A DNA stretch of 64,000 bases from a virus (lineage: Duplodnaviria > Caudoviricetes): the IMG/VR virus record IMGVR_UViG_3300027007_000012, positions 24,657 to 88,656 of that record. The stretch is one strand, 5' to 3'. Shown here in pieces: positions 5,677-61,455 of this stretch. The notes beneath the pieces were generated by a model that was given only the letters and a program-made list of their open reading frames with translations, ran no database searches and had not been told where the DNA came from. Position numbers and translations under genes: made by a program. How positions within the stretch are numbered: position 1 is the first letter of the stretch; the number at the start of each line of letters is the position of its first letter.

Positions 5677-5970
5677 ATGATTCGCATCGAGTACGATGAG
5701 GCGTACCCATTCCTGATGGGGTATCTCACACGTAGTTTCGAGAAAGAGATCGACGGACAGCGATGTGGCCCCGAGACGATCATGTCTGCGATGAACGCCG
5801 AGGGTCGCGAACTCATAATGACCGACCATCAGGCGAAGTGTGTGATAGCGTTGCTTGAAGACGGGTACGACGTCGAGGAGTTGGACAACACGAAGGAGGC
5901 GGTCGAGAAGTTAGAACAGTTGAAAGATGATCTGAACACCGCACTGGATGCCACCAGCAGCGGAGAGTAG
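5677..5970 (+). CDS. Hypothetical protein
   Basis: Acidic 97-aa ORF from ATG 5677; ends with a copy of the dispersed motif. Confidence 0.6.
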   Translation: MIRIEYDEAYPFLMGYLTRSFEKEIDGQRCGPETIMSAMNAEGRELIMTDHQAKCVIALLEDGYDVEELDNTKEAVEKLEQLKDDLNTALDATSSGE

Positions 5971-5986
5971 AACATGTCAGGATGGG

Positions 5987-6024
5987 CTGCACGTACATAC
6001 GTGCACGCACATATGTACGTACAG
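5987..6024. repeat. Purine/pyrimidine-alternating imperfect palindrome (15-8-15), inverted relative to the copies at 40525 and 63003
   Basis: ctgcacgtacatacg-tgcacgca-catatgtacgtacag; its reverse complement matches 63003-63040 at 34/38 positions. Confidence 0.9.
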
Positions 6025-6784: not shown

Positions 6785-7170
6785 GCGTTTTTGAAACTTT
6801 TCTTGGGTTGAGTGGAAGAAATGTTGTGAAAGTTGAGTGAAAGCTGGGTTGCGTATATGTATGGAAGCTGTCTCGTTTTTCTGTACCTGTTCAGAAGGGG
6901 GTGAAATCGATAGACGGCGATGGGATTGGGATAGGATTGTTTTCGGGAAAAATCGAGAGATCCTCGTTTAGGGACAATGCTATTCGGGCAATACAGACCC
7001 CCTACCCCCCAAATTCGGGCACTTGGAAACCCCAAATATGGGCACTCTCAGGGCCTGTGAGGCCCGTCTACGGACTATCGAAGCTCCCTGAGTTGATTCT
7101 GTGGACTCATTTTTGGACGTTCGTCTATATATGTGGACACACGCTGGTGGTGGCATCGAGAGCTGCGAGG

Positions 7171-11437: not shown

Positions 11438-11904
11438 TGCGGGCGCGATCGCGGCGCTGGATGGTCGTCACGGACCCGGACACGGACTGCGAGTCGCCGG
11501 TGTTTCGCCGCATCCCGTCGAAGTTGGAGGCGCACAAGCTCGCACAGTTGACGGTGCGCGCCTACGACGATGGGACCAGCGCCGGCGTTGTGGAGGACCT
11601 CGGAAAATGACGGGGGACGTTCGCCGACGAGAGCACGTCTACGGGAGGGGGCGGCTCGTCGTCTACGAGGGGAACCCGAACACGTCGACAGCGTTCGTGG
11701 CCGGGAAGCCGGTCCCGAACGAACCCTGACAGTTTCTGTTTTTGCGCGCCGCCCGCGTCGTCGATTCACCCAGACCGCACTGGATGCCACCAGCAGCGGC
11801 TCTCGCCCCACATATGACAGATAATAGAAACATTTAATATCGTACCTGTCATAGTATAGTATAGGTTACTGAGGGAAACCTCGGTGCCCACCTGGAGTGA
11901 AAGA

Positions 11905-13982: not shown

Positions 13983-15614
13983 ATGACAGATACAGCACGC
14001 CTTGTTGTCAACGGTTATGTAGAGCCACAAGAACGATCGGTCCGGATCGTGTCGATCCTGGGGAGTCTGGCGAACGTGCCGGACGGCCACCGCTTCGAGT
14101 ACCGCGGGATGGAGCTCGAAAAGCGCGTCACCACTGCACGAGCGCGGCGCGAACCCGAGCTCGCCGTGTACGACCCCGATGGCGAGTTCGTCGACCAGTT
14201 CCAGCCTCTGGAGCTCTCGTCGTACGGGATCGTGGAGATGCTCGATACCATGCGCGCCCACTGGGTCGAGACGAAGCGAGCGACCTCTCTGTGATCGAGG
14301 TCGTGATCGCGGTCGCGGTCATGGTCGCTGGCCTGGCATTGTTCTACGCCATGGTCGCGTACTTCGACTTGTGACCGAAAACTGGTATTTACCGGGTGGG
14401 CCCTACCGTGACATGGAGTACCAGAGATGCCCCGATTGATCGAGCGCATGGGTTGCGTTGCCGACCGACTGAGTGACGAGTGGGAACTCGACGACATCGT
14501 AATCGAGCAGTCGGCGACAGCCACGGCGCTCTATCGCCACGAGTCCGGGGCGATCGTCATGTGGTCGGCCGACCCGGGGCATCGCGTTCAGCTGTGGGAG
14601 CCAGACGGCGCGATGGAGACCTGGTTGGACGACGACGTGGTCGACCTGGATTGCGCGGCCGAGACGGTCCAGACGTGCATCGAGATGGTCGAATACGAGA
14701 CCAGCACATCGATGCCACCAGCAACGTCGGCGCCACGTCCGTAACCGTTTTTCCGCGCCGCCCGCGCCGGTCCTGTCACATCGATTGACCACCTGTACCA
14801 TGCTACGTTTCTCGATTACCAGCAAACCCCTCAGATATACATACATTAATATCTGTACCACGCATAGGTACATATAGGTCAAAAAACTGGCCTATCCGAA
14901 CGGAGACTGAGAAAGATGAGATACAGAGTCTACGGCACACGCAGTGGCACCGATTTCCAGGCACCCGTCTACGCGCGGACCGCGTCTGACGCGATCGACC
15001 TGTTCCTCGACTCCGTGGGCGACCACGCGGCCGAGTACGACAACGTCCGAGCCGAGGTCTGGGGTTGACGATGGAGAAGCTGTCGAATGTGGTCCGCATC
15101 GAAGACCACGAAGTGGTCGTCAACCGACTGTACCTGGCCACGCTGGTCGACGACGTCCAGTACCGACTGAGCGCCCTGGGAGACGAAGACGTCGGTGACT
15201 ACGAGGGAGAGTTGCACGAGGCGCTGTTCCACGCCCAGGAGGCGCTCGATGACTGACGACGACGACCGACTCCCGCCGGACGCGGTCCCGGACCCGTCGG
15301 TTTGGATGCCCCCGGACGTGGTGGTCAGCAAGGAGACCGCCGAGGTCGCGCTGCGCGAGCTCGACATCCTGATTGAGCACACGGGCGGCCCGGACACGGC
15401 GGTCGAGGACTGCTGCTCGCCGCTGGCGCTCGCGTACGACCGGGTCGAGAGACTGGAGGGCGAGGGGATCGACCCGTTCACCGTGGGGACGGTCCTGCAA
15501 GTGTTGGTCGGTGTCGGTGAGGAACGAGGCGTCGACCTGTCGGGGGAGGACCCGTTACAGGACGACGTGTTCCAGGCGAGGAGCGAGTTCAGGGACGCAC
15601 TCGGCGTCGAGTAG
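13983..15614 (+). CDS. Small hypothetical ORFs of cassettes 4-5 (13983-14294, 14427-14744, 14916-15068, 15071-15256, 15249-15614)
   Basis: Acidic coupled ORFs downstream of the conserved promoters. Confidence 0.7.
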
Positions 15615-15631: not shown

Positions 15632-15680
15632 GCATCGCTGCTGGTGGCATTCCGAGCTCGGTTCGATTCCGAGGCGATGT
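15632..15680 (+). ncRNA. Mini-tRNA-like element 3 (contains a near-copy of the dispersed motif)
   Basis: CATCGC (15633-15638) pairs with GCGATG (15674-15679); T-arm CTCGG-TTCGATT-CCGAG. Confidence 0.7.
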
Positions 15681-19739: not shown

Positions 19740-20091
19740 ACACGGGAACCGACCCAGGGCTACCGATTTCGCGCCACGCCCGTCGTGAAAACCACCGCAC
19801 CGATGCCACCAGCAGCGCCGGCCCCGGCGTGAATCGTGCACATCGCGACCAGTGTGCCTCGACGAGCGGCGACCAGGTTTCGCGAGTGGAACCCCTACCC
19901 CGTAGACGCCGCCAACGAACCTCCGAGAGCTGGGCCAGATCGCCGTCGTGAAGGGCCGTCGTATCAGGTGTGAATACTTGCGGGCCCCGGCACTGAATCC
20001 AGGGACACAGCGGCTATGCGATGCTCTGGAACTACCAGAGTTATCAGCCGTTTTACATACCTTAAATACCTCACCCTGAGTAGCTAAGAAT

Positions 20092-20775: not shown

Positions 20776-22962
20776 ATGGGACAAAAAATCCCAACCCCCG
20801 AACGGAGCGAGAGCGAGACGAGAGCAGCAGAGGAGGGACGATGATGCGCCCCGAGTCGCCGATTGAGTGGACTGGCGAGGCCCACCTCGTCACGGTGAGC
20901 TGTAGCCGCTGCGGGAGCACGATGAGCGTCGACGAAGATACGGCGCTCTGGTACGACGAGCAGGGACGCGAGCACGTGTGCGAGGAGTGTGAGTGAGATG
21001 CGCCGAGTGCGTACGATGCTGCTGGCCGCGAGAGTCGTCGCTGGGATCGTCGTGTTCCCGATCGCGCTGACCGCCGCGAGAGCTCGGGCCCGGGTGGTCT
21101 GATGAGCTGTCTCGATTGCGGGTCGACGTCGCTGGCGAGCGAACGAGTGGACGTGGTCGGGCGCCCCGACGAGCGGGTGACGTACTGCGAGAACTGTGGA
21201 GAGGTGCAGTACGTGGATGTGATTCGATGATTACGCTGCTGGTGGCATTGGTGGTTGCCGGGCTGGGCGTGTGGGCGTTCCTGCTGATCGCGAGGGAGCT
21301 GTAGCGATGGACTGGTGCCCGGAGTGCGGGTCGATGGCCCGCGTCGACGAACGACGGTTGGAGCGCCAGGACGACAGCGCGCTCGCCAAGGAGGTGCTCG
21401 ACGTCGTCTGCATGCAGTGTGAGTACGAGGGCGAGAAGCGTCGCACAGTGCCCGCCGTGTTCGAGCGGCGGCCAGCAGAGACGGGGCGGGGCGTGAGCGA
21501 GCGCGAGCCGGGTCACCCGCTCGACCGCTGAGCGCCCCGGTTTCGCGTTCCGCCCGCGCCGACCCCTGTTTCCGGTCCACGAGCAAATAGAGTTCGCGAC
21601 GCGTGTGCATACGCTCGTCTCAGCACGATCCCCCAGGGCCTCACGGCGACGGGCTCCTCGGGCCATCACCCCTCCCCTGTGGATGTTGCTCACGACTGAC
21701 TGGGAGCACACGAACGCACGCCTCAGCGCCTCTACGCGCACTTTCTGTCTGGGGATTTATCATTGGCTTCGACCTTGATTTCCGCTCCACGCGGCCGGAC
21801 GCGGCAACCCGGCACCAGAAGTATCAGCCGCTTTACATGACTATATACCTGTACCATGAGTAGCTAAGAATATGGGAAAACAAAATCCCACCCGACCGGA
21901 ACTGGCCGAGAAGCGACGCAAGCTCGTCAGCGAGCTCCCGTTCACGAGCCCCGCCGAGAGCGGCAATCGGATCGTCGTGTGCGTGCAGGACCGCAAGCTG
22001 TCGAAGTTCGAGCGCGTCGTCGCGGACCTGGACCTGGAGATCGTCGAGCGAGAAGACGCTGGGCACTCGATGCAGGGCCGACGCCAGCGCATGGTCCTGG
22101 AGGCGTCGTAGCATGCGCCGATCGACGCCGGCGGACCTGGAGCAGCGCCTCGCCGCGATCGAAGCAGAGCTGCGAGCGATGAGTCGCGGAGACGTCGACG
22201 CGGGAACGTGCCGGTGGCTGCTGGAGGAGAAGGCCGAGCTCAGAGACGAGCGCGACCGGCTGCACGAGACGAGTGGGCGGTGGGCCTGATGAGCGACGAG
22301 GGATTTCTCCCGCCAGCGCCGACGGGCGGCCACCCAGCAGACGCCGTCGAGCGAGCGCGAGAGATCGTCCAGGGAGCACCGGCGACAGAAGAAGAAGTGG
22401 CGTGGGCGGCGGAGGTCCTCGCAGACGTCGAGTAGGGTCTCCGGTTTCGCGCCGCGTCCCCGCCGTCCCCGTCAGTTTTCAGGCCGATTTCAGGCCGATT
22501 TTCGCAGAAACCCTCGAAATCGAGTGCCTCAGAGCCTCTACGGGCCAAAGTCTTTATATTCGCTTATGTCAAAGATTTAAATGGTATGGCAAAAAACCAA
22601 ACCACCCGACGGGAAGCAGAGCAGGAGAACGAGAGCGACTGGTGGAGCGAGTATCTGCGAGAGCTCGACGAGATCGTTGTGGGAGTGCTCCCAGCCGAGT
22701 CAGATGCGGCACGCCGGCTCGCAGCAGACGAGTACCCGACGTGGAGCCAGCGATGAGTGACGAGACCGGAGAGGCGTGTGCGAGGGGAGTCGAGAGTGCG
22801 AGCAGTGAGCGAGAGCGTGTGCTGGTGAGAGACGTGACCGCCGTCGCGCAAGACCTGGAGACTATGTCGGACCACGATCACTTGAGAAGCAGCCGCATGC
22901 TCGAGAAGACGGCGCGAGAGATCGTCGACGCAGTGCACGTGTACGCAGACGACGACGCGTAG
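20776..22962 (+). CDS. Microprotein ORFs of cassettes 12-14, including CPxCG-type zinc fingers, a short membrane peptide, 21872-22111 and 22586-22756
   Basis: MDWCPECG and MSCLDCG-type starts; leaderless MGQKIP, MGKQNP and MAKNQ starts. Confidence 0.6.
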
Positions 22963-23686
22963 GGAGAGGGGTTGCCGATTTTTTTGGTGCTGTCCGTGAG
23001 CGCCGGAAACGCGCGCCGCCCGTCGCCCGTCTTTCGTGTGTGCAACCGCATGGCTGGGTGAGAGAGCGAGCAGGAGATGAGCAGGAGCGTGTGCAGTAGA
23101 GCCCCCCGCTCGCGGGCCCCACCAAGAGCTGGTGCGCGGCCGGGACCCATTTAGACCTACTTTTACCGCGACACTGATTTTCAGGGATGGGACCGAAACG
23201 AATCACTATACTATCTCACATCAATCCAGTCTTTGTCTTCAAACTCGGTGGCACAGATGTTACACAAATCGATGTCAACTTCTTTCGTTGTCCCGTCCTG
23301 GCGGTCAATCTCAAGGTGATGTTCAGATCCAGTCCTATCGTTACAAACTGAGCACTCCATTTTTAGAAAGATTACAGGTGAACCGTTTTAGTCGTATTCC
23401 CCCTGATCAGTGTCCCACTAAGGTGTTTTCGTGGTGTTGATTCGATTTGATCTACTTTTTACGGGCACCCTGTTTTCAAGCAGTCGCCTCTGGTGGCATC
23501 CAGTGCGGTGACATGAACCAGGTCCATTGACCCTAATGTACCCTTATTTCGAAGCATAACGAAAATTATATATCCGTTCCCTGACTATCTCCATATGTCC
23601 TCCTTGGAACGGAGTGACGCATTGCATGAAGCGAACGAACGACCGGCCTGGAGACCCGGTCACGACCCCGAGAAGCACCGCTTCGG

Positions 23687-26600
23687 ATGCCACCAGGAAC
23701 GGTGATTTTGGTGAGTGAAGCTGACCAGTTCACCCCCGAGATGGTGGAACGTATCGAGGAGTTGCAAGATGATGAGTCGGTCGATTCCCGCAACACGAAC
23801 AGACACGACGAGGGCTGGATCAGGTTCTACGTCGAGTGTCCTGACTGTCACGTCCCGATGGCTCGCACGACGGTCGAGGCGAAGGACGTCGACGAGACAC
23901 ACTCGCGATCGACGCATCGATGCATCTGTCCTGAGTGTCACGCAGTCCAGACGAACCTGACTGTCTACCGCGAGACCTACCGCTTCGACGAGAAGCACCG
24001 GAGGGACGATGCGTAACAAGTATTTCGTCGACGATGTCTCGCGCCAACAGGCGGGTGATCTGTGGCATATCGCCGACGAGAGCCCTGATCCCTATTCGAA
24101 CTGGGTGGCCCGCGTCGCGTGGCGACTGTACAGCGAGCTGGACATCGGCGAGCGCGGCCGACTCAAGTTCCGTGGGGAGAGTGAGTACAACCGGGCTTGC
24201 AAGCTGGTCGAAGTCGAAGCGATTGGGTCTGCATACGGCGACAAGCCCGATCTCGAACGGTCGTGGAAAGACCTGCTGGACAAAGTCGAGAACGCACAGG
24301 TGGTGCCCTGATGTCGAGCGATCCACGGTTGCTTCAGCTGATACAGAGTCAGAACGAACTACTTCGCCAGCAGAACGCGTTCGTTGCCGATCTCGCGAAG
24401 ACGCAGAACGACCTGCTACGGTTCCAGTACCTGGAGCGGCTGGGTCGGATGCCCGAGGTCGAGGAGGCCGAGGAGTACGTCCACTCGGACAAGGTGGAAC
24501 GACTCCGTATCACCGGAGTCAAAGGCTCTGATGGGGACACCCCAAAACTTCACGATTAAAGATGACAAATCGCATAGCGCGTGAGACAGAGGTATCGACA
24601 GATGAATAGGGTGGCTGACATTTCCCCGGGAACGGTCCTGGTGGCCGGGTTCACGGGGAGGCGGTACGTGGTCCAGTCCGTCGACGAGGACGAGGGACTG
24701 GTGTACGTGCGGGGGCTTCCGGCCCTCCCGATGGACGAGCTCCAGCGGGACATCGCCAACGGCAAGATCGGAGTGGTCGGATGAGTCACCTCGAATCTGA
24801 GCTGGTGACAGACATGGACGCGATCGCCGGCTACTCGCGGCGGGCGCTGAACAAGTTGGCCGTCGACGATGTCGATGGAGCGGAACGACTCGTCGAGGAC
24901 ATCCGGAACATCGCGTCCTCGTGGGAGGAACCGTGAACTACGAATCCGCTGGAGTCAACGACCGGCGTGGTGAGATAGGCGTTATCGACGCCTACGTCGT
25001 GTCCGAGTCGCCCTCCGGCGACGGAACGATGTACACGATCCAGTTCGTCCCCTTCGATGAGGGAGAGTGGGTGCCGTCAGACATCCGCTCGGAAGGGTCG
25101 TGGGTACACGTCCAGGATATCTTCCGCGGTGCCCTCCACGAGGCGATTCAGGCGGTCCAGGACGAGTGTGACGTTCGGGTCCCGTTCAACCGACCTGGCT
25201 TCGAGGAGGTTGGGGATGTCTAACCTGGGAGAGGAGCGACGATGTCGACGGTGCGGCTTCACGTGGGTCGACGAGTACGGGAAGTACCGCTCGTGCCCGC
25301 AGTGTTACGGAGAGAAAGATGAGTGACAACGAAGCGATCGCGGTAGAAACGGACGGTGAGACGTACGCCGACATTCGCGTCGACGGCGCAGTGGCCGCGT
25401 CGGTCGACGTCGTCGACGAAGATCAGGTGAAAGCAAAGCTCTACGAGTTGGTGAACCCCGGAGACAGAGACGCGATCGATGTCTGGTTCATCGACCGGCT
25501 GACGGAGGAGAGTGACGAAGATGAGTGACGACATCCACCAGCAACTACGGGAGAAGTACAGTGACCTGATAGAGCGACACAGGGAACTGAAAGCATCTGC
25601 GAGGGAGGCGGATATAACGGAGGACCCGCTCCACTCACCTGGGGAGATACGGGCCGAAGCAGACGGCGTCATCCTGGGAGTGCGGGCTATCGAGGACGTG
25701 CTGAACGCCATCGAGAGGGACGGAGATGAGTGAGAAAGACCCGATCAGGCTGGTCGAGATACTCGAGGACGAGAAGCTCGACTTCGTGGTCTTCCAAGAT
25801 GGTGAGGAACAGACACTGTTCGACAGCTTCGGTGAGGCGGTCGATAACATCCTGAACGTGGTCGGTCTGGACGTTGGCATCGTCCAGGCTGTCGGTGGTG
25901 GCGCATCACGGCCGGTGTACCTCTCGGTGGATGGCGTTATCGAGACGCTCCTGGAGAAGACGCCGGATGACGACGAGGTCGTCGTCTCCCGAGAGCTCCT
26001 CGCTGACACGGCCGATGCGATCGTATCGGCGGGTGCAGAACCGAGTGAGTCGGAGAAGGCCGTGGTCGACGCGATCAACGAGGTGTTGGCGGATGAGTGA
26101 TGACTACGTCGCGACTTACGCACTCGAGCTCAAACGAGACGTCGGCGAGATGACCGCCTGGTATCAGGTTGAAGCGAAGGGAGACGTTGATCTCGACGAG
26201 GCTGATCTCCGCGAGATGGGAGTCGAGACGGTCGAGGAAAACATCCCCGAGGTGCCCGTCGACGAACTGGTCCTCGCGTTCGCCGAGATGACGGAACTGG
26301 AAACGCCGGCGTACACGTTCGAGTTCTCGGCGAAGGTCGACTACCACGCCGACGACAACGACTGTCACGGCATCGCTGTTGGTGGCACCCTCGACGATGA
26401 TGGGGACCTCCGTCTCACGGTCTACCGGACGGAGATGGACGGCATCGACGTGAGCAAGCCGAAAACAGTCGACAGGGTCCTGCTCGACGACGTGAAGTCG
26501 GTGGTGGACGATGAGTAGCACAACGAACGGACAGGTCCAGCGGGGGTCCTCGTCGTTTTCGAGCTGGTGGGAGATCGAGCTCGAGATCCCGTTCGAGATG

Positions 26601-28525: not shown

Positions 28526-28562
28526 CACATGCACCCAGATGCCACCAGAAGCGGGAGGAATC

Positions 28563-30984: not shown

Positions 30985-31013
30985 AAAAAACCCCACTCGA
31001 TGCCACCAGAGGC

Positions 31014-40518: not shown

Positions 40519-40524
40519 ACCCCC

Positions 40525-40560: not shown

Positions 40561-41061
40561 AAGGGTAGAGGTTCTGAAAGACATTAGGTAGGGAATCTTT
40601 CATGGTGACCCCCGGCGACCCCCTTTCCAGACCCCAACCCCCACCCTGTAGGCCCTGTAAACGCCTCTCCGGGCACTTCGGACCCGATTAGTTTCAAATC
40701 GACACTCTCAGACTCTCTATACGTGGTATACGGCATAGCTGAGCGACATTCCAGTCCTTCAGAACAGTTTCCTCTCCGCTAACCTCTCATGTCCGATAGC
40801 GCGTCATAATATTCCTGACACCCCCACGCTCTCGATGCCACCAGCAGCGGTTTCGACGATTCATGAAAGGCACGTAGAAACGGTTTAGGTGGAATCGATA
40901 GACTGGTCTTCATTAAACTAATGAATGAGTCTCGATAGAACAGAAATCTTTAATATCATATCCCACATATTTCTACTTACCCACAGCTACCCAGTGGGAC
41001 GCACTCCAGGAGTGCGTGGAACGGAGACATACATGAGAAAATTGCGACAGAAGTGGGGGCA

Positions 41062-47114: not shown

Positions 47115-47137
47115 CGCACCCCCGATGCCACCAGCAA

Positions 47138-47175
47138 CCCGTTTGGAGCACGGCGGTTCGACTCCGCCGGCGGGC
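47138..47175 (+). ncRNA. Mini-tRNA-like element 6
   Basis: CCCGT pairs with GCGGG; T-arm CGGCGG-TTCGACT-CCGCCG; directly after a dispersed-motif copy. Confidence 0.65.
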
Positions 47176-49942: not shown

Positions 49943-51161
49943 CCTCGTCGATAGCGGGCACAGACCCACCCCGGAACGGGAGACGTTCAGACACGTCTGG
50001 GCCGGCGAATCCGGGCCGTGGGTCGTTCTCGAACGCATCAAAGGGACGCGAACGGATAGCGGTGAGATCGTCGCCGAGTGTGACGACTACCTGAACGCCC
50101 TCGCGTACACCGTCGACAACGAGACTGAGGACTGGGTGACTACGGAGATTGCGGGCCAGTGCTGCAACTGTGACCAGTTGGTTGTCGTCGACGAGCTCGC
50201 AGAAGAACCACTGTGTCCACACTGTGACGACGTGCTGTGGCTGGCCACCGAGCAGCGGAAACTCGCCGAGTTCGCGCGGGAGCGACTCTCGTTCGACATG
50301 TACTGGGGCGTTGCGTCCGGCGCACAGCGGAAAGCGATTCGCGTTCTCGCGCACGGCTTCGACCATCGCGAGCCCGACGATCTCAACATCATGCTGAACT
50401 ACGCGACGCAGAACAATCAGGTCCTGACCGAGAAGGGGCTTGAGCTCGCGACAAACGTCGACACGTTGTTCATCGACTCAGGGGGCTACTCGTTTTTCGA
50501 GCGTGAGGGTGGGTACGATACGTCGGATTATGAGTATCTCAGGTACATTGCTCGAGTCCAGCCAGACTACTTCGCGCTGAGGGATTACCCATGCGAGCCC
50601 GATATCCTGGATGCACGCGACACGACCATTCGATGCCACCAGCAGCGGACGACAGAGAAAGCCCAGATCCTGCTCGATATGCTCGATGACTTTTCGATCA
50701 CGGCCACACCCGTCGCGGTCGTCCAGGGGTGGGCGCCCGATGATTACCGGTCACACCTCCGTCAACTCAACCGTGCGGGTGTCCTCGACCAGGTAGAGCA
50801 CATAGGCATCGGAACCCTCTGTGGTCGGGAAGACGTCGCCCAGATCGCGACGATCATCGAGACGGTCAGAAAGAGTGTCGGCCCGGACTTCAAGATACAC
50901 GGGTTCGGGGTGAAACGAGAGGCGTTGGAACGACCGGACGTCGTCGAGGCACTCGATTCGGCGGACACGCTGGCGTACAGCATGAAACCGATGTACGATT
51001 CCATCGCTACTGGTGGCATCCTCTCGAACACTTGGAAACACGAAGCCTGGGGGTTCTTGGACTACTACGCCACGGTCCACGAGTCACTCAGGATGATCGA
51101 GCACGGAGAAGCCGACGAGGATGTTGTCGCCCAACAGACCCTAACGTCATATGGAGACTGA
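49932..51161 (+). CDS. dpdA: DpdA-like 7-deazaguanine DNA transglycosylase with an N-terminal Zn-ribbon extension
   Basis: LFIDSGGYS, DYPCEP, VVQG, IGIG, IHGFG and DSADT motifs; N-terminal CCNC...CPHC. Confidence 0.8.
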   Translation: MATNLVDSGHRPTPERETFRHVWAGESGPWVVLERIKGTRTDSGEIVAECDDYLNALAYTVDNETEDWVTTEIAGQCCNCDQLVVVDELAEEPLCPHCDDVLWLATEQRKLAEFARERLSFDMYWGVASGAQRKAIRVLAHGFDHREPDDLNIMLNYATQNNQVLTEKGLELATNVDTLFIDSGGYSFFEREGGYDTSDYEYLRYIARVQPDYFALRDYPCEPDILDARDTTIRCHQQRTTEKAQILLDMLDDFSITATPVAVVQGWAPDDYRSHLRQLNRAGVLDQVEHIGIGTLCGREDVAQIATIIETVRKSVGPDFKIHGFGVKREALERPDVVEALDSADTLAYSMKPMYDSIATGGILSNTWKHEAWGFLDYYATVHESLRMIEHGEADEDVVAQQTLTSYGD

Positions 51162-51293: not shown

Positions 51294-54200
51294 ATGGAAG
51301 ACGAAGGACCAGATACGCACGATGTGCCCGGACACGACCGGGCCACCGGTATCGACGATCCCGTACCCGACAGCGAGTACGGCGATCAGGACTACCGACC
51401 AGAGGACGAGGTCGACCCCGCCGAGAACGACGACGGCTACACGATGGAGGACGAGTACGCTGTCGACGATGTCGACGGATACGGTTCGGCACAGCACTAC
51501 GGAACATACTGTGCAGACGGATTTGCGCAGGCGGCTGAGCAAGCACAGGCCGAACACCCGGCCCTGGACCTGGGATTCGTCCACGTCACCCACCTGGAGA
51601 CTGGGGAGACACAGCACGTCGAGGTGCACACTGGGGGCGATGACGTCCCCGACGATCTCGTGGTCGAGCTCGAGGGAGACATCGGAACGCTCCAGCCAGA
51701 GGTCGACGACGAGGAGATGGAACGTGTCAACAACTCGCTCGAGGACTGGATCGCGTCGCTGGAGCTGAACGCGTTCCTCGACACGTACGACTACATGTGG
51801 GCCGAGTACCCCGTCGGTGACACTGACGAGGTCGTCTACGTCGTCCCCGACGCTGAGCGGTCGTTCACGACGAAGGAGGAACTCGCGTACTTCATCCACG
51901 AGTTCGAGCAGTACCCGAAGCAGGTGGCTGTCACGGCCACCGTGGACGTTCGATTCGACCTGATGCTCGCATCGCCAATGCGAGACTCTGAGGAGGTCGC
52001 AACGAATCAGCTCGTCGACGCGGTTGAGTCGGTCGGACTGACCGTCGACAACGCGACCATCGTCGACGTGGCGGACGTGCCCGAGTACCCGGAGAGCGAG
52101 CAGGCCGATCCAGTGGACCCGATCCCGGACATCGGAGACACCGTTCGGTTCGTCCTCCCGGAGGAAGATGGCGAGTTCGACGGCGTCGTCAGGAACGTTA
52201 GGGGGTTCGACGGGAGTGTCGAAATCGAAGTGCAGACCCCACCGGACAATAACCAGACCTACGTGTCACCAGAGCAGATCACGGCCGTCCAGCCCGCTGA
52301 GGACGCCGACACGCCGGACCACGAGGTGTTCAACTGATGGGTCTGTTATCCAAAGTTCGACGCATGGTGTCGCGGTCTTCAGACCCTGACCCCTCCCCCG
52401 TGGAGGCTGACAACGAGGCTCTGGAGCCTGTGACACGCGACGTGCATATCTACCCGGACATCGACGACGTTATCGAGTTCGGTGGGCGTCGTGGTCGTGT
52501 CATTCGGTACGAGAACGGGACGGCCGTGATCGTCAAACTCGAGGAACAGCCGGCTCTTACGCCTGTCAACGTCGAACAGATCGACTGTATCGTTGCTGGT
52601 GGAAGTCCGCGCCTCCCCGACCACGACGTGTTCGGCACAGAAACGCCGGACCACCCCGTCTTCGACGCAGACGAGGACCTCCCGGACCACGAGGTATTCG
52701 CATGAGCGATGACGAGGAGAGTCTGTTCGAGGTGACGGTCACTGTCTCGTACACGGAGACGTTCGACCTGGAACGCGCTTCAAAAGAGGAAGCCCGAGAG
52801 ACGGGCGTGTTCTACGTACAAGACGACATCAGTCAGGGCGTCATCGACATCGATGCCTTCGACATCAACGCGACCGCCACGGAGGTCGTTGAATGACCGG
52901 GACGATCAGGAACATCGGTCGAGAGCCTATCGGGGAGTGGGAGTTTATCGTCGGCTTCGGTCACGCCGTCTACGGCGCGGTCACGCCCGATGGAGACATC
53001 ATCGCGTTCATCGGCTGGTGGCAATCGAGCTACGCCACTCGGACACAGATGGCGATCATCCGGGCGCTTGCAGACGATGAGTACCGCGGGCGACCCAGCT
53101 TCCGTGACGACCACGTTGTCGTCACCACGCAGTCGAGCCAGGTCCCCGACGTCCTCCCACCGTCGCTGTACGAGTACGCGAACGACCGCGCGGCCGCCGC
53201 CCACGGGGTGGCGGTATGACTGTCGTCGACGTCGTCATCTCGTTCGCTACCTCGGCGAAAGTCGAGATCGGCGACTACGACCGAGAAACCGCCTTCGGCG
53301 ACGACTTCCCATGGAAAGAGTTCGACGATGCGCTGGTCGAGTATCTCGACTCACTCCCCGAGGAGGAACTGCGCGAGCTCTATCGCGAGCCCGAGGCGAT
53401 CGCCATGGACGACCCAATCTTCGGCGGTTTCGGCGACGCAGAGGCTGATGTCGAGATGGAGGTCGAGTGATGTCCGGCGTGGAGTTCAGCGGCGAGCCAG
53501 ACCGTGTGGTCGACGGGTCCGACCAGGACGAAACGGTCGATCACGTCCCGGACAACATGGCTGCTCACTTCGCGAGTGCCTACGAGAAAGGCGCGCTCGC
53601 GAGGCGACGCGGCGAAGACCGGTCGGAGAACCCGTACGTCGCACGGTACAACCCGGACTCAGCAATGGGCGGTGAGTGGGGCCACGTCTGGTCCAACGCA
53701 TGGCGCCTTGGCTGGGAGAACGAACAGCGAGACGAAGACGGAGAGCGCCTACTGAACTACCGAAAGGCGTGGAAGATGGGGCGCTGAGACGATGGCGACC
53801 GTAGACGATACGACCCAGGGTACACTCTCCCGGATTCCACCAGAAGCGCGGTGTGTGAACTTCGCCGACTGTGGGAACGAAACGCCCGGTGGCGAGGAGG
53901 CTGGCAACATGATGTGTGACGACTGTCTCGACGAGGCGCGAGCTGCTGGCGCTGGACACGACCTGGGCGTCGACGAAGACGACGAATAGAACGTAGACTA
54001 ACCCGAATGAACCGAACTGAACTGAAGGAATCAGCCATGCCGTAACACGACAGGCGAATCGAATAGAAGTGACGTAGCAAGGACGAGAGATAGATGGCAC
54101 AGCATACACGGCCATACCCGTACGCAGAATCGCTCCGGAACACGCAGCTGATGGACCTCTACGAGACAGGTCCACGGTTCTCCGACGAGCTCCCGAACGG

Positions 54201-55153: not shown

Positions 55154-55828
55154 ATGACGCTGATTGCGGAGTTTGAGGTATCCACCCCACTCCTCCAAGA
55201 GACGCGTCGTCTCGCGCCTGACGTGGTCCTGGAGCTGGACAGTCTCTATGCAACGCGAGATTGCCGAGTGAAGATGATCATCTGGGTAGTGGGTCGGGAT
55301 CACGAACAGTTCGTCGACAACCTGGAGAGAGACAGTACGGTCGCAGAGATGGAGGTTCTGGCCGATATCAACGGAGACGATCGGTGCTTGTGCGTAGTTC
55401 TGCTCACCGAGGATGCGTCTGATCTATCCTCGTACTGGCAAGTCATGGAGGCCGACATCGCGTGGCTCCGCGTAACAGTCAGTGGCGAGACAGGAACGTG
55501 GCTGATACGCATTCACGACCGCGAGCGACTGGCTAAGTTCGTCCAGGGGGTCAAGACCGAGACAGGAGAGTCGATCAGGCTCACCAGTCTCTACGACGAG
55601 GATGGGGACCAGATAGACGAAGTCAGTCGGTCAGGTCTTTCAGGGCCACAGCTGGAGGCGTTGACTATCGCATACGACATGGGGTATTTCGACAACCCGA
55701 GACAGACGACGCTGGGTGAGATCGGCGAACGGATTGGCATCTCATCCGGTGCTGTGAGCGGGCGAATCAGGCGCGGTGTCAAGACGGCTGTTGGGGACCT
55801 GGTCCACCCGAACGGAGGGCATGAGTAA
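55154..55828 (+). CDS. Bacterio-opsin-activator-like HTH-10 transcription regulator
   Basis: LSGPQLEALTIAYDMGYFDNPRQTTLGEIGERIGISSGAVSGRIRRG. Confidence 0.9.
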   Translation: MTLIAEFEVSTPLLQETRRLAPDVVLELDSLYATRDCRVKMIIWVVGRDHEQFVDNLERDSTVAEMEVLADINGDDRCLCVVLLTEDASDLSSYWQVMEADIAWLRVTVSGETGTWLIRIHDRERLAKFVQGVKTETGESIRLTSLYDEDGDQIDEVSRSGLSGPQLEALTIAYDMGYFDNPRQTTLGEIGERIGISSGAVSGRIRRGVKTAVGDLVHPNGGHE

Positions 55829-57384: not shown

Positions 57385-60300
57385 ATGAGCCAATCAGATA
57401 GTAGTGTGCATCTCCCGAAGAAACGGACTGACGGAGAGACACTCGAAGATCGACTGACAGAAAACGCGTATCAGCGGATTATTCCGCAGCGATACCTCAA
57501 GAAAGACGAGAACGGCGTCCCAACGGAGGAACCCGAGGACCTGTTCGAACGTGTCGCGAAGAACATCGCTGTCGCCGAGGCGGTATACACCGACGAAGAT
57601 GTCGTGATCCGGCCGGAGCACATCAAGCCCGACCACCCGCGTCGCGATGATCTAATCGACGAAGTGTTCTTCACGCCCAAAACGCCGACTCGAAATGACC
57701 CTGACCCCGAGACGCTCGCTGACGAAGTCGAACTGACCGAGGAGAACGCCAAGTGGGTCGACTACGATGCAATCATCGACGATCTCCCGGATGCCACCAG
57801 GAACGTCGTCGAGGACCAAAAAGAACAGTTCCAGGACCGGATGGAATACCTGGACTTCGTCCCCAACAGCCCGTGTCTCGCCAACGCCGGCGACGAGCTC
57901 CAGCAACTCAGCGCCTGCTTCGTCATGTCCCCGCAAGACGACATCGCGGACATCCACGACACGATTCGTGATGCTGCGCTGACGTTTCAGTCGGGAGGCG
58001 GCGTTGGATATGCGTTCAGCTACCTCCGACCCTACGGCGATACGGTCGGGTCGACTGGCGGCATCGCGTCGGGGCCGCTCACGTTCATGCGCACCTACGA
58101 CCAGATGTGCCGTACGATCGCCCAGGGCGGGATGCGCCGGGGGGCACAGATGGGCGTCATGCGCGTGACCCACCCGGACGTCATCTTCTTCATCCACTCG
58201 AAGAACAAGGACGTCTCGCTCGCGCAGGCCCTCCGCCTGAACGACCCGAAGGACTACGTGAACACGACCTACGGGGAAGCACTCGACGAAGCCCGAGAGA
58301 TCCTCGACGAGTTCACCGATAACGAAGGGAGACTGGCCCCACACCTGCGGAACGCGGTCGAAGCGCAGCTCGCGAACTTCAACATCAGCGTGACGGTCAC
58401 CGACGACTTCATGGAGGCCGTCCAGAACGACGAGCTCCACACGTTCATCAACCCGAGGACAGGACACCCACACATCGCGACCGAGGAGACCAAGGAGATG
58501 TACGAGTGGTTCGACCTGGGTGAGCACGTCACCGTGGGTGAACCACTGCGTGTCCCGGCTCGTGAGATCTGGGAAGACATCATCGAGGGTGCCCACGAGA
58601 ACGGCGAGCCCGGCGTTTTGTTCATCGACACTGCTAACGTTGACCACTCGTTCCCGACGGAATCGACCCCGACTTGGAGAGACGACCCGTTCGAGATGAG
58701 CACCACGAACCCGTGCTGTGCGAAAGGGACGCTCGTCAACACGCCTGACGGCTACCGACGGGTCGAGGAGATCGAAGTTGGGGACGAGGTATCGACTGTC
58801 ATCGGTTCGGAGACCGTCGACGAGGTCGAAGTACACGAGGATGTCCCGATCTACCGAGTCGAGTTCAGCGATGGTGGCTCGATGAAGGTCACGGGACAGC
58901 ACCGTTTCCACGTCCTGAAAGACGACAAGGGCGTGGATGACATCCCGCTCGTCGACGTCGACATCGGTGACCACGTCCGGTTGGAACCGGCTTCGTTCAA
59001 CGAAGTAGGAACGAACGACGAATACCGCCACCAGTTCCGCCGAGGGGTCCTCGTCGGTGACGGTTGTTACACCCAGGACACCCTCAAAGCCAACAACGTC
59101 GTCAAGATCTCGACCAGTGAGGACGACGCCGAGTACAACCGGCGGCTCAAAGCACTGTTCGAGGACGATGGATACGCGTTCAACGCCGACGAAAACAGTA
59201 GCGACGATAAGGCGCTTCGGCTGAATCTTCGTGACGGGTGGACAGTCGTCGAGGACCACGGCCTGACCCCGTCGTCGGCCCCGATGAAAACAGTCGATGT
59301 GACAGAGTTCTCGACCGAGCGAGAGGCGATGGGATTCCTCGATGGACTCCTCGGCGCAGACGGCAACGTCAACCTCTGGAGCACCCGTCCGCAGGTTCGG
59401 TACGACACGTCGTCGAAGGCCCTCGCGAAAGACGTTCGTGACCTGTGTCTCCAGCTCGGGATGCACGCTCGCATCTACGAGGTGACGGACCCCCAGCGTG
59501 GTGGTTCCATCAACGGCCGGAAGGTCAGCTCGAACCACCCGAAGTACACGGTCAACATCTCGGGAGCGTCAGCCAAGCGGTTCGCTGAGCTGTCGAACGT
59601 CGGTGACTACCACCCGGAGAAGGGAGAGCAGATGTTGGAACTCCGCACCTCGTTCATGAACACGGGAGACTCATGGAAGGCGGAAGTTGTCTCCATCGAG
59701 CCCTGTGGCGAGCCCGCAACGGTGTACGACCTGTACTGTTCTCGGTCGGACACGTGGGTCACGAGTGGCTACGTCCAGCGCGGTTGCGGCGAGCAGTGGC
59801 TCATGGAGAACGAGGCATGTAACCTGGGCCACATCAACCTCTCGACCCTGGTGGCCGAGGATGCCCCGGACTGGCGAGATATCGAGGCGGCGGCCGTAGA
59901 GGGCGGTGCTGAGCTTGACCTGGAGCACGCTGTGAGCGAGTTCCTGTGGCACAAAGCCATCGATGTGGAGGACCTCGACGCTCGCGTCGACGATGGTGTC
60001 CGGTTCCTCGACAACGTCGTGACCATGTCGGCGTTCCCGACCCCCGAGATCGAGCAAACGGTAAGCGAGAACCGAAAGATCGGGCTCGGGATCATGGGAC
60101 TGGCCCAGATGTTCGTCCAACTCGGGACGAAGTACGGGTCGGACGTCTCGAACGAGATCACCCGCCAGCTGATGCGCCACATCAACCAGCGGTCGAAAGA
60201 CGCGTCGATGCGCCTCACTGACCACCGTGGAGTCTTCGACAACTGGGAACACAGCAAGTACGCCGACCCTACGGCCCACACGGACTGGTTCGAGCGACAG

Positions 60301-61455
60301 ACCGGGGAAGCTGCTGACGTCTGGGAAGACGGCTACCTGATGCGGAATCACAACACGACCACAGTGGCCCCTACTGGGACAACTGGGATGATCGGAAACA
60401 CGAGCGGTGGGTGTGAACCGATCTTCGGCGTTGCGCACTTCAAAAACGTCTCTCAGGACATCCAGGGAGACGAACAGCTGGTTGAGTTCGACGACTACTT
60501 CCTGCGCGTCCTGGAGGCGAACGACATTGACGTCGAGGCGACGAAAAAAGAGTGTCTCCGACAGATGGAGAACAACGAGTTCGAGGGGGTACACGGACTC
60601 AAGACCGTCCCGAACGAGATCGGTGAGTTGTTCGTCACCACGGACATGCTCACGGGCCGCGAGCACGCATCGGTCCAGTGTGCAGCGCAGGAGGGCGTAG
60701 ACAGCGCCCTCTCGAAGACGGTGAACTTCCCGAACCGGGCGACCGAACAGGACGTGGCTGACGTCTACGAGTACCTGTGGGACAACGGGGCGAAGGGCGG
60801 TACGATCTACCGTGACGGGTCCCGGTCCAAGCAGGTTATCTCGACCCGCGCTGACCACGGGGATGTCGCAGACGATGAGCCCATGTCACGTGAGGAGGCT
60901 GAGGAACTGATCGACGAGCTCGCCGAGGAACACGCGATCCCACTCGGTGTCGAACCAGCCGAGGATGCCGCTGCTGGTGGCATCGAGTTGGTCGAGCCGG
61001 GTAAAGTCCTGACCGCACGACGTGAACGCATCAAGACGGGCTACGGGAACATGTACGTCAACATCGGCTTCGACGACGAAGGTCGACCCATCGAGACGAT
61101 CTGCAACATCGGCAAGTCCGGTGGGTTCACCAACTCGATGGTCGAGGCGATCGGCAAGCTCTCCTCGCTGGCCCTCCAGGCGGGTGTTCCCGCCGAGGAA
61201 GTGGTCGAGAAGCTCGACGGCATCTCCTCGCCGGACATCGCGTTCGACGATGGCGAGCAGATCGCCTCACTCCCGGACGGCATCGCGACGGCCCTCCAGC
61301 GGGCAATCGAGGCCGAGCAGGAAGCGACACTCCAGATCAACGCGCACAACGACCACAACCCGAACAACGAGTCCTGTCCGGACTGTGGCGGAGAGGTCGT
61401 CTACGACGGCGGCTGTCCGAAGTGCTCCCTCGGCTGCGGCTGGTCCAAGTGCTGA
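57385..61455 (+). CDS. nrdJ: Class II (B12-dependent) ribonucleotide reductase containing an intein
   Basis: PNSPCL, SACFV, GGGVG, RRGAQM, TNP/CGE, CNLG, APTGT, SKTVN and C-terminal TSCPD/Zn-ribbon region. Confidence 0.95.
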   Translation: MSQSDSSVHLPKKRTDGETLEDRLTENAYQRIIPQRYLKKDENGVPTEEPEDLFERVAKNIAVAEAVYTDEDVVIRPEHIKPDHPRRDDLIDEVFFTPKTPTRNDPDPETLADEVELTEENAKWVDYDAIIDDLPDATRNVVEDQKEQFQDRMEYLDFVPNSPCLANAGDELQQLSACFVMSPQDDIADIHDTIRDAALTFQSGGGVGYAFSYLRPYGDTVGSTGGIASGPLTFMRTYDQMCRTIAQGGMRRGAQMGVMRVTHPDVIFFIHSKNKDVSLAQALRLNDPKDYVNTTYGEALDEAREILDEFTDNEGRLAPHLRNAVEAQLANFNISVTVTDDFMEAVQNDELHTFINPRTGHPHIATEETKEMYEWFDLGEHVTVGEPLRVPAREIWEDIIEGAHENGEPGVLFIDTANVDHSFPTESTPTWRDDPFEMSTTNPCCAKGTLVNTPDGYRRVEEIEVGDEVSTVIGSETVDEVEVHEDVPIYRVEFSDGGSMKVTGQHRFHVLKDDKGVDDIPLVDVDIGDHVRLEPASFNEVGTNDEYRHQFRRGVLVGDGCYTQDTLKANNVVKISTSEDDAEYNRRLKALFEDDGYAFNADENSSDDKALRLNLRDGWTVVEDHGLTPSSAPMKTVDVTEFSTEREAMGFLDGLLGADGNVNLWSTRPQVRYDTSSKALAKDVRDLCLQLGMHARIYEVTDPQRGGSINGRKVSSNHPKYTVNISGASAKRFAELSNVGDYHPEKGEQMLELRTSFMNTGDSWKAEVVSIEPCGEPATVYDLYCSRSDTWVTSGYVQRGCGEQWLMENEACNLGHINLSTLVAEDAPDWRDIEAAAVEGGAELDLEHAVSEFLWHKAIDVEDLDARVDDGVRFLDNVVTMSAFPTPEIEQTVSENRKIGLGIMGLAQMFVQLGTKYGSDVSNEITRQLMRHINQRSKDASMRLTDHRGVFDNWEHSKYADPTAHTDWFERQTGEAADVWEDGYLMRNHNTTTVAPTGTTGMIGNTSGGCEPIFGVAHFKNVSQDIQGDEQLVEFDDYFLRVLEANDIDVEATKKECLRQMENNEFEGVHGLKTVPNEIGELFVTTDMLTGREHASVQCAAQEGVDSALSKTVNFPNRATEQDVADVYEYLWDNGAKGGTIYRDGSRSKQVISTRADHGDVADDEPMSREEAEELIDELAEEHAIPLGVEPAEDAAAGGIELVEPGKVLTARRERIKTGYGNMYVNIGFDDEGRPIETICNIGKSGGFTNSMVEAIGKLSSLALQAGVPAEEVVEKLDGISSPDIAFDDGEQIASLPDGIATALQRAIEAEQEATLQINAHNDHNPNNESCPDCGGEVVYDGGCPKCSLGCGWSKC
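58714..59784 (+). mobile_element. LAGLIDADG intein at the NrdJ active-site Cys, with an atypical C-terminus (...GYVQRG/C)
   Basis: Starts CCAKGT after TNP; GVLVGDG and FLDGLLGADG blocks; the C-extein resumes CGEQ. Confidence 0.88.

Follow-up and report, generated by a model that had tools for sequence, protein, structure and literature searches.

The DNA analysed here, termed the window, is a 64,000-nt stretch (positions 24,657 to 88,656) of the 88.7-kb virus record IMGVR_UViG_3300027007_000012 (G000), in which intergenic DNA and genes for a portal protein, an intein-bearing terminase, ribonucleotide reductase, DpdA and a GlmU-like protein carry copies, exact or with one mismatch, of one asymmetric DNA word of 16-25 bases. 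G000 lies 52 bp from a second contig (G001). G000 and G001 are the same molecule, as contig L416 carries the end of G000 and the start of G001, both at 100% identity and 52 bp apart. Together they form one ~155-kb temperate element (type A) with at least 43 exact cores, of which 25 are in G000 (17 + and 8 -), 16 in G001 and 2 in the extension of G001. Two relatives were used for comparison. The first, at ~82% nucleotide identity, is represented by G002 and contig L406 (type B), and G001 and G002 come from the same metagenome. The second is the 149-kb plasmid CP058532.1 of the cultured Halobaculum (Halorarum) halophilum (type C), which is colinear with both G000 and G001. The assumption of the initial annotation that this is an archaeal virus holds, as the proteome is acidic and the relatives are haloarchaeal. 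A temperate lifestyle is indicated by the tyrosine integrase of types A and B, by the type-B provirus, which abuts host genes, and by the type-C plasmid, which carries Orc1/Cdc6 and ParA. The features in the window are as follows.

5947..5962 (+), exact core; overlaps the last codons of gene 5677-5970; G002 has ACTACCACCAGCAGCG at the orthologous place
11783..11798 (+), exact core, intergenic
14711..14726 (+), exact core; 23 nt before the end of gene 14427-14744
19802..19817 (+), exact core, intergenic
23485..23500 (-), exact core, intergenic; forms a divergent pair with the copy at 23686
23686..23701 (+), exact core, intergenic; 14 nt before the next gene start
28538..28553 (+), exact core; 12 nt after the stop codon of the winged-helix candidate gene
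28845..28860 (-), exact core; 5 nt after a stop codon; kept in types A, B and C
30999..31014 (+), exact core; directly upstream of the GTACGTACATA palindromic element and the terminase gene
35710..35725 (+), exact core, inside the 3' end of the portal gene (34082-35842, a PHROG portal match); ends ...CAGCA
37092..37107 (-), exact core, inside the 76-aa gene 36961-37191, labelled holin-like in the initial annotation only
38324..38339 (-), exact core, inside the GlmU-like gene (38329)
40834..40849 (+), exact core, intergenic
47124..47139 (+), exact core (ends ...CAACC); 9 nt after a stop codon; abuts a mini-tRNA-like T-arm element
50632..50647 (+), exact core, inside the DpdA gene; orthologous copies in types B and C
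51005..51020 (-), exact core, inside the 3' end of the DpdA gene (51010); orthologous copies in types B and C
57790..57805 (+), exact core, inside the ribonucleotide reductase gene; orthologous copies in types B and C
60969..60984 (-), exact core, inside the 3' part of the ribonucleotide reductase gene (60974)
5610..5620 (+), one-mismatch copy (GATGTCACCAG), followed by the GTACGTACA element
7147..7157 (-), one-mismatch copy (GATGCCACCAC)
15641..15651 (-), one-mismatch copy (AATGCCACCAG + CAGCG), embedded in a mini-tRNA-like element; G002 has ACTACCACCAG here
21239..21249 (-), one-mismatch copy (AATGCCACCAG + CAGCG)
32121..32131 (-), one-mismatch copy (GTTGCCACCAG), in the intein-bearing terminase gene
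53833..53843 (+), one-mismatch copy (GATTCCACCAG); G002 has a site at the same place
58055..58065 (-), one-mismatch copy (GATGCCGCCAG)
27989..28525 (+), candidate binder 1 (inference only), a 178-aa protein with a weak MarR-type winged-helix match; motif copies follow the gene at 28538 and 28850
55154..55828 (+), candidate binder 2 (inference only), a 224-aa HTH_10/BAT-type regulator

The observation made in the initial annotation, that a short asymmetric motif recurs across this genome, was confirmed. The exact core GATGCCACCAG occurs 18 times in the window (12 + and 6 -), at the coordinates stated in the initial annotation, compared with 0.03 expected from shuffled sequences, and when one mismatch was allowed, 25 copies were found against 1.13 expected, which gives the 7 near-matches that had been noticed. 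All 18 exact copies fit GATGCCACCAGNRRC. As claimed, the second and third bases after the core are purines and the fourth is C in all 18, and the fifth base is G in 16 of 18, the exceptions being the copies at 35710 and 47124. However, the motif is longer than the 16 bp stated, since a weakly conserved A/C-rich stretch of about 10 nt (caCCGCACTs) precedes the core. The claim that the copies are read in several frames also held: the + genic copies use all three frames, and all five - genic copies in the record (four of them in the window) read A-A/T-G-G-I.

Comparison with the relatives showed that the sites are kept in place while one half of the motif differs between lineages. First, 26 of 30 alignable G000 sites have a G002 site at the same place and strand, with a column identity of 0.90-1.00 for CCACCAG against about 0.75 in the flanks. 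Second, where G000 reads GATG-CCACCAG, the type-B relative reads CACTA-CCACCAG; position -1 is G to A at 20 of 30 sites, and positions -3 to -5 change together with it. The same switch is seen between G001 and L406. Third, the plasmid of H. halophilum uses another form, cACATG-CCACCAC-NRRCG, at orthologous places. Selection acts on the DNA, as third-codon positions inside the motif are 0.82 identical between relatives against 0.62 in the flanks (p = 0.002). A concerted change of all sites of a lineage in one half of the motif is what co-evolution with a trans-acting, sequence-specific binder would produce. In contrast, a selfish or neutral short repeat, or a linker that promotes exchange of gene modules between viruses, would not change in this way. 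Although some homology blocks between G000 and G002 end near a copy (genome positions 4574 and 48117), only 2 of 47 homology breakpoints lie within 40 bp of a site, as chance predicts (1.5-1.9), and copies sit at orthologous places inside conserved genes. We therefore regard this reading as already disfavoured and very unlikely.

The motif is also restricted to the replicon of the element. The type-C 11-mer occurs 14 times on the 149-kb plasmid and twice in the remaining 4.15 Mb of the host genome, so that it is about 200-fold denser on the element than in the chromosome of this cultured host. None of 301 sampled Halobacteria genomes has more than 2 copies of the 16-mer, with 22 copies in all against 9 for the control pattern. 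Equal density across the host chromosome and lack of conservation in relatives had been named beforehand as outcomes that would refute the observation, and neither was found. These counts also bear on the possibility that a host protein binds the sites and that the three variants reflect three host species or strains. Although no viral binder was found and the variants could track hosts, the 2 chromosomal copies in the type-C host are no more than chance (the reversed control pattern gives 5 in the whole genome), and without enrichment in any of the 301 genomes a host factor would have essentially no sites of its own. In addition, types A and B co-occur in the same samples, and a host binder is thus considered very unlikely.

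The placement of the sites was examined across four related records. Of 114 sites, 58 are intergenic or on gene edges against about 20% expected (p = 1e-11), 17 of 42 + intergenic sites start within 19 nt after a stop codon, and 17 of 56 genic sites lie in the last 15% of their gene (p = 0.003). In contrast to the initial annotation, in which the copies were described as not oriented with transcription, orientation is not random with respect to genes, but it follows transcription only weakly (co:anti 38:20 in intergenic DNA and 31:25 in genes). There is no fixed distance to TATA-like elements. A 12.6-kb gap without sites holds a helicase gene and small genes and takes in an R-M/SNF2 defence island that both relatives lack. 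However, the gene-end preference could simply mean that those places tolerate a 16-nt insert best, and the site-free defence island could simply be a recent arrival.

Because most intergenic copies are in the sense strand and start just after stop codons, the motif might instead act in RNA, as a 3'-end, processing or termination signal of viral messages. A TTT run follows 37% of them against 20% background, and two copies abut mini-tRNA-like elements. However, about 40% of all copies are antisense to the genes and are conserved just as well, and there is no extra folding potential (MFE -11.4 against -12.5 kcal/mol, p = 0.24) and no Rfam family in the window. A covarying stem is not possible, because the core never varies. 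We consider an RNA signal very unlikely.

Another possibility is that the sites serve genome maintenance and load a partition, condensation or packaging protein along the 155-kb replicon, as the dispersed centromere sites of plasmid-prophage N15 or ParB/parS-type sites do. The spread over the whole replicon on both strands with weak orientation bias, the somewhat more even spacing than chance in G002 (CV 0.70, P = 0.01), and the ParA and small adjacent DUF8160 protein of the cultured plasmid fit this view. However, the site is not palindromic, spacing in G000 and G001 is no more even than chance, and the gene-end and intergenic preference has no obvious meaning for partition. The site is kept equally in the integrase-bearing types A and B and in the ParA-bearing type C, and the DUF8160-like zinc-ribbon protein is 94% identical between types A and B, so it does not track the motif change. 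N15 also carries several SopB-binding sites scattered along a prophage that can live as a plasmid, some of them inside genes, but those sites are inverted repeats and number only a few, whereas the site here is one-sided and present in more than 40 copies. A maintenance role is therefore possible but unlikely.

It is also conceivable that the motif is a strain-specific self tag, either as a Chi-like stop signal for an element-encoded helicase-nuclease that destroys DNA lacking the tag, or as the target of a site-specific base modification by the DpdA-type 7-deazaguanine transglycosylases or the GT-B glycosyltransferase of the element. The tag is almost absent from host chromosomes, sits on both strands and differs between co-occurring strains, and the element encodes a UvrD-like helicase, ERCC4 and PD-(D/E)XK-like nucleases, DpdA and glycosyltransferases. 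The reverse complement holds GCTGGTGG, the E. coli Chi octamer, in the 16 of 25 copies where C follows the core, and the GT-B gene P0001 is present in type A and missing at the same place in type B. However, a 16-25-nt word is far longer than any known Chi; Chi sites (RecBCD/AddAB) are 5-8 nt long, enriched in the host chromosome and skewed by replication direction, none of which holds here, and archaea are not known to have RecBCD or AddAB. The UvrD-like helicase does not track the motif types (83% identical between types B and C but 61% between A and B), the glycosyltransferase correlation rests on one lineage pair, now that G000 and G001 are known to be one genome, there is no evidence of modification, and the gene-end placement is not explained. 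This reading is also unlikely.

Two other archaeal elements were compared. The intergenic repeats of halovirus HF2 that carry promoters (PMC8707807) are likewise repeated non-coding elements in a haloarchaeal tailed virus, but they are 29-58 bp, AT-rich and strictly intergenic, whereas this motif is GC-rich, lacks a TATA element and has half of its copies in genes. A separate ~36-nt GTACGTACATATG-type repeat in this genome may be the nearer counterpart of the HF2 repeats. Origin recognition boxes bound by Orc1/Cdc6 are also asymmetric archaeal sites of ~20-30 nt with a G-rich tail on one strand; however, those next to cdc6 on the related plasmid read AACACTTGAAACAGTGGGGGGT, are unrelated in sequence to this motif, and are clustered as inverted repeats and not dispersed.

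Compared with these, the stoperators of Cluster A mycobacteriophages (L5, Bxb1, TipsytheTRex) are the closest in logic. In that system, more than 20 asymmetric 13-mers are recognized by a monomeric repressor with two DNA-binding domains, and the motifs differ between heteroimmune relatives (PMC9283540, PMC6550527). In both cases, tens of copies of a short asymmetric site are spread over a temperate viral genome, in promoters, short intergenic spaces and gene boundaries, the variant differs between related strains at syntenic places, and relatives are inherited either by integration or as plasmids. The two-part site would suit a binder with two DNA-reading domains. The contrast with stoperators drawn in the initial annotation needs softening, as the sites are enriched between genes, sit close to stop codons and are mildly co-oriented with transcription, and the element is temperate. 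However, stoperators act only in one orientation (PMC9283540), whereas orientation here is only weakly tied to transcription, about half of the copies are inside genes, the site is longer (16 nt plus about 10 weakly conserved nt), and the host is an archaeon with eukaryote-like transcription machinery.

No binding protein was identified, and no homologue of the Cluster A repressor was noticed in the Pfam scans that were run. Two candidates are proposed by inference only. For the winged-helix protein (27989-28525), the differences between types A, B and C cluster in the predicted recognition helix, but the domain match is weak, only one homologue was found in 5.8 billion proteins, and the AlphaFold2 model is unreliable (pLDDT 42). 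The HTH_10 regulator (55154-55828) is 52% identical between types A and B, against a median of 82% for all orthologues, but its recognition helix is unchanged.

In conclusion, the interpretation in the initial annotation, a binding site for a virus-encoded protein that organises, segregates, packages or silences the whole viral genome, was partly supported. The analysis established the enrichment of the motif, its restriction to the replicon of the element, selection at the DNA level, conservation of site positions, the concerted change of one half, a preference for gene ends and a temperate lifestyle, while it remains inferred that a protein binds the sites, which protein it is, which function applies and that binding silences transcription. 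Our best, though tentative, explanation is that the motif is a set of dispersed, one-sided binding sites on double-stranded DNA for a sequence-specific, co-evolving protein encoded by the ~155-kb temperate head-tail virus/plasmid of haloarchaea itself. One half of the site, CCACCA(G/C)-NRRCG, is kept in all relatives and the other is lineage-specific (GATG, CACTA or cACATG), which fits a protein, or a pair of domains, that reads the two halves separately and whose specificity for one half has shifted, with all sites following. In this view, the most likely role is genome-wide transcriptional control in the carried (lysogenic or plasmid) state, in which the bound protein would block read-through at the ends of genes and at some promoters and would define immunity types, as stoperators do in Cluster A mycobacteriophages.

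The enrichment described in the initial annotation was confirmed. The window contains 18 exact GATGCCACCAG cores (12 + and 6 -), whereas dinucleotide-preserving shuffles give 0.03, and when one mismatch is allowed, 25 copies are found against 1.13 expected. After every exact core, bases 2-3 are purines and base 4 is C, and base 5 is G in 16 of 18 copies. The 88,656-bp IMG/VR record of which the window is the right-hand 64 kb (G000) holds 25 exact cores (17 + and 8 -), and the alignment of these 25 copies shows a longer motif, in which about 10 nt of weakly conserved A/C-rich sequence (caCCGCACTs) come first and are followed by GATGCCACCAG and then by NRRCG. The motif has no dyad symmetry. Almost all genes are on the + strand, and the + genic copies use all three reading frames, while the - genic copies read A-A/T-G-G-I. 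As stated in the initial annotation, copies lie in the portal, ribonucleotide reductase, DpdA and GlmU-like genes.

The replicon was then characterized. The proteome is strongly acidic (median pI 4.4, Asp + Glu 19%), which fits a virus of 'salt-in' halophiles, and no relatives were found in the cultured-phage collection at the DNA or protein level. When viral contigs were scanned with the 16-mer, a second record, G001 (IMGVR_UViG_3300027007_000030, 58 kb), was found with 16 exact cores. G001 shares no DNA with G000 and only one protein, a GT-B glycosyltransferase, and this looked like the same motif in two unrelated viruses, which would have pointed to a host factor. However, this reading was wrong for three reasons. 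First, the 148,857-bp plasmid CP058532.1 of Halobaculum (Halorarum) halophilum is colinear with G000 over 51-127 kb and, immediately after that, with G001 over 127-141 kb and then 5-44 kb. Second, a metagenome contig (L416) carries the last 3.9 kb of G000 and the first 8.3 kb of G001, both at 100% identity and 52 bp apart. Third, one of the window's proteins sits on contigs of up to 154,791 bp. The two IMG/VR records are therefore two pieces of one ~155-kb genome, here called type A, with at least 43 exact cores. Its gene content includes a tyrosine integrase, a DNA ligase, a family-B polymerase, an AEP-type primase, tail sheath, tape measure and baseplate proteins, terminase and ribonucleotide reductase (both with inteins), DpdA, and major capsid and cement proteins. 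In addition, the 'provirus' end of G001 is an artefact, since viral and defence genes and two more motif copies continue beyond it. The element is temperate, as it encodes an integrase, a close relative abuts host genes (hisD, dnaJ) on a metagenome contig, and the cultured relative lives as a plasmid with Orc1/Cdc6 and ParA. Further loci of the replicon and its relatives are as follows.

Window 63777-64000, continuing into L416 and G001: junction of the two records.
Locus L403:6933-16014, beyond the end of G001: continuation of the contig with dCTP deaminase, PadR, an OLD-like nuclease and Fic genes and the two more motif copies, in a region of lower G+C (45-49%).
G000 genome 2600-4300 (outside the window; locus L370): cluster of about 6 tRNA-like genes next to the integrase, where the type-B relative has about 13 at the same place; the count comes from T-arm matches only.
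Window 31076-33835 and 57406-61455: inteins with LAGLIDADG homing-endonuclease domains, which interrupt the large terminase and the ribonucleotide reductase, whereas the terminase (547 aa) and reductase (989 aa) of the relative G002 lack them.
Window 38718-40166: GT-B (GT4-like) glycosyltransferase next to a GlmU-like nucleotidyl/acetyl-transferase, present in type A and cleanly missing at the same place in type B; a 34%-identical paralogue sits in G001 and is likewise missing in L406 (the relative of G001) and L405 (plasmid CP058532.1). It may modify DNA or the virion.
Locus L119:300-686 (G001 40300-40686, minus strand): 128-aa protein matching Pfam PF25735 (mycobacteriophage L5 gp82) at E = 4e-32, an unexpected family link between a haloarchaeal virus and a Cluster A mycobacteriophage.
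Locus L405:16087-16606 (plasmid CP058532.1, upstream of cdc6): typical haloarchaeal replication origin with at least 6 ORB repeats (CACTTGAAACAGTGGGGGGT) in inverted arrangement next to Orc1/Cdc6, with ParA and a DUF8160 protein nearby.

Relatives of the element keep the sites but spell them differently. The record G002 (89.6 kb, type B) is colinear with G000 at 82% nucleotide identity, yet it has only one exact core, and at the orthologous places it reads (C)ACTA-CCACCAG-NRRCG. Of 30 G000 sites in alignable DNA, 26 have a G002 site at the same place and strand. When the sites were compared column by column, CCACCAG was 90-100% identical, the T at -2 was 90% and the CG at +10/+11 was 93% and 87%, whereas the flanks were about 75%. 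Position -1 is G to A at 20 of 30 sites, and positions -3 to -5 change together with it. Third-codon positions inside the conserved columns are 82% identical, against 62% in the flanks (p = 0.002). The other half of the genome shows the same switch, as G001 has CTGGATGCCACCAGCAGCG where L406 has CTCACTACCACCAGCAGCG. The H. halophilum plasmid, at about 65% protein identity, has a third form (type C), cACATG-CCACCAC-NRRCG. It holds 36 copies of ATGCCACCA, again at orthologous places, for example inside DpdA and the reductase gene and after the gene matching window 28539-28844. Thus, one half of the site is fixed, and the other half has changed in concert at dozens of loci, at least twice.

The motif belongs to the element and not to the host. 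In the complete H. halophilum genome, the type-C 11-mer occurs 14 times on the plasmid and twice in the remaining 4.15 Mb, which is roughly a 200-fold difference in density, and the reversed control pattern gives 5 in the whole genome. In an even sample of 301 Halobacteria genomes, at most 2 copies of the type-A 16-mer were found per genome, 22 in all against 9 for the control, although this sample does not prove absence from the unknown hosts of types A and B. These counts reject a host repeat or a Chi-like host signal. The reverse complement of most copies contains GCTGGTGG, which is the E. coli Chi octamer, but nothing else about the motif fits Chi. Types A and B co-occur in the same metagenomes, and binding by a host factor is considered very unlikely. 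Scans of the collections with the bare 14-16-mers gave only chance single hits, and a scan with the longer 21-nt form found only the parent contig of G001 holding several copies. Literature searches for the word itself found only primers.

To examine where the sites sit, 114 sites in the four records were pooled. Of these, 51% are intergenic or straddle a gene edge, where about 20% is expected (p = 1e-11), and 49% are inside genes. Orientation relative to the genes (co:anti) is 38:20 in intergenic DNA (p = 0.025) and 31:25 inside genes, and therefore does not strictly follow the direction of transcription; only the strict type-C 11-mer is strongly biased, 12:2 on the plasmid. Of 42 + oriented intergenic sites, 17 begin within 19 nt after the preceding stop codon, while the distance to the next start codon is broad, with a median of 106 nt. 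Genic sites favour the last 15% of genes (17 of 56, p = 0.003). A TTT run follows 37% of sense intergenic sites, against 20% background. There is no fixed distance to TATA-like elements, as some sites lie upstream of a promoter-like element and some downstream, which rejects a promoter with a fixed TATA distance. Spacing was also checked, and a regular spacing of ~3.3 kb was rejected, since the CV is 0.95 in G000, equal to chance; spacing is no more regular than chance in G001 either, and only G002 is mildly even. The only long site-free stretch in G000 (12.6 kb) holds a UvrD-like helicase gene and small genes and takes in a defence-type island, which both relatives lack. The island and other non-coding elements are as follows.

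Window 1-5516 (genome 21660-30172): defence-type island without a motif copy, holding an Eco57I-like methylase/nuclease of 1380 aa (it starts before the window) and an SNF2 helicase with a PLD nuclease domain (1139-4507).
Window 5971-6026, about 31015-31040, 40517-40560 and 63003-63040: second repeated non-coding element of about 36-44 nt, built around the palindrome ACGTACATATGTACGT (GTACGTACATATGTACGCGCCCATATGTACGTGCAG), 93-95% identical between copies and also found in G001, G002 and the H. halophilum plasmid. It may be a promoter/operator cassette, and three copies directly follow a motif copy.
Window 40607-40640: third shared non-coding element, GACCCCCGGCGACCCCCTTTCCAGACCCCAACCC, repeated twice in G001 at 94-97% identity.
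Window 15661, 27495, 29507 and 47156: mini-tRNA-like elements (T-arm GGTTCGAWTCC with an acceptor-like stem) between gene blocks. Two of the four (15661 and 47156) abut or contain a motif copy, and in the one at 15661 the reverse-complement motif fills the space between the acceptor strand and the T-arm.

Several other identities were considered. The motif is not a structured RNA, because there is no Rfam match and its folding energy is no better than that of random windows, and an RNA 3'-end signal is considered improbable. It is not an origin recognition box, a type of site that occurs as inverted copies clustered around an AT-rich unwinding element next to cdc6, because the true ORBs next to cdc6 on the related plasmid read AACACTTGAAACAGTGGGGGGT and are clustered within about 500 bp, whereas the motif is dispersed (the ORB papers searched gave no sequence in their text). 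It is not a recombination linker at mosaic boundaries, because only 2 of 47 homology breakpoints lie near a site, as chance predicts, and a passive repeat is the least likely of all the readings. It is also not the promoter-bearing AT-rich repeat of halovirus HF2, which is intergenic only (PMC8707807), as the motif is GC-rich, half of its copies are in genes, and its AT-rich peak is weak and not fixed in position. The site does not fit ParB/parS-type or N15-type centromere sites, which are palindromic and bound by a ParB/SopB-type dimer encoded next to ParA. In addition to the lack of dyad symmetry, it is kept in relatives where an integrase but no ParA was seen in the Pfam scans run, which covered only part of the proteome, and the small protein next to ParA does not track the motif type. 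A role as maintenance or partition sites is considered unlikely, although it is the strongest of the alternatives.

The evidence fits double-stranded DNA sites read by a sequence-specific protein that the element encodes, namely a long asymmetric word under DNA-level selection, confined to one replicon and with one half that co-varies across all copies. The interpretation in the initial annotation, a binding site for a virus-encoded protein acting on the whole viral genome, is supported in part. The two-part architecture recalls the immunity repressor of Cluster A mycobacteriophages, a monomer with two DNA-binding domains that recognises more than 20 asymmetric 13-mers, called stoperators, and whose site motif differs between heteroimmune relatives (PMC9283540, PMC6550527). 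Stoperators lie in promoters and short intergenic spaces or at gene boundaries, and their orientation strictly follows the direction of transcription; the repressor, which has an HTH domain plus a second DNA-binding domain, binds them and stops transcription. Our analysis establishes the enrichment of the motif, its restriction to the replicon, selection on the DNA and the variant spellings at orthologous sites in types A, B and C, whereas the binding of a protein, the identity of that protein, a block of transcription and heteroimmunity between the types are inferred. Genome-wide transcriptional blocking in the carried state is our best functional guess, and it remains tentative. Three things favour it: the temperate lifestyle; the position of sites just after stop codons, ahead of the next promoter; and the site-free defence island, whose genes would be expected to be expressed in lysogeny. 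However, orientation is only weakly tied to transcription, half of the sites are inside genes, and no homologue of the repressor appeared in the Pfam scans run, all of which speak against full membership in the stoperator family.

Two unproven HTH candidates for the binder are offered as inference only.

Window 27989-28525: 178-aa protein with a weak MarR-type winged-helix match, followed by two motif copies. Its differences between types A, B and C cluster in the predicted recognition helix.
Window 55154-55828: 224-aa HTH_10 regulator, only 52% identical between types A and B, against a median of 82%, with an unchanged recognition helix.

The first candidate has only one homologue in 5.8 billion proteins, and its AlphaFold2 model is unreliable (pLDDT 42). 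A PadR repressor and a 53-aa zinc-ribbon protein were rejected as specificity determinants, because they are 92% and 94% identical between types, and the PadR recognition helix is identical. The UvrD-like helicase was rejected as the reader of the motif because it does not track the motif types. The GT-B glycosyltransferase P0001 was also rejected, as it is a GT4-like fold and its correlation with the motif rests on a single lineage pair. An atlas search of the fastest-evolving 200-aa protein was uninformative.

A different and unlikely possibility that is still compatible with the data is that the motif is a strain-specific identity barcode and not an operator. In this view, an element-encoded machine would read a ~16-nt word that the host chromosome lacks and so tell its own DNA from host DNA and from competing sister strains. 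That machine could be a helicase-nuclease with a Chi-like stop signal, or a site-directed 7-deazaguanine or glycosyl modification enzyme, and the three 'dialects' would be the outcome of competition between co-infecting relatives. This would be a new kind of self/non-self discrimination for a virus.

In conclusion, the motif is a real, strongly selected and replicon-specific cis-element system, which is closest in logic to the known stoperators but differs from them in host domain, site length, orientation rule and placement. In the papers searched, we found no description of such a dispersed motif in an archaeal virus or plasmid. How large archaeal viruses and plasmid-prophages keep a hundred or more genes silent, or mark and manage their genomes, is almost unknown, and the motif offers a clean handle on this question, with more than 40 copies, three natural specificity variants at orthologous sites, and a cultured carrier, H. 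halophilum with plasmid CP058532.1, in which binding, transcription and immunity can be tested directly. If the sites are roadblock-type operators, stoperator-like global silencing has arisen independently against the archaeal, eukaryote-like RNA polymerase. If they are something else, such as an identity tag, a modification target or a loading site, the element would be a new class.
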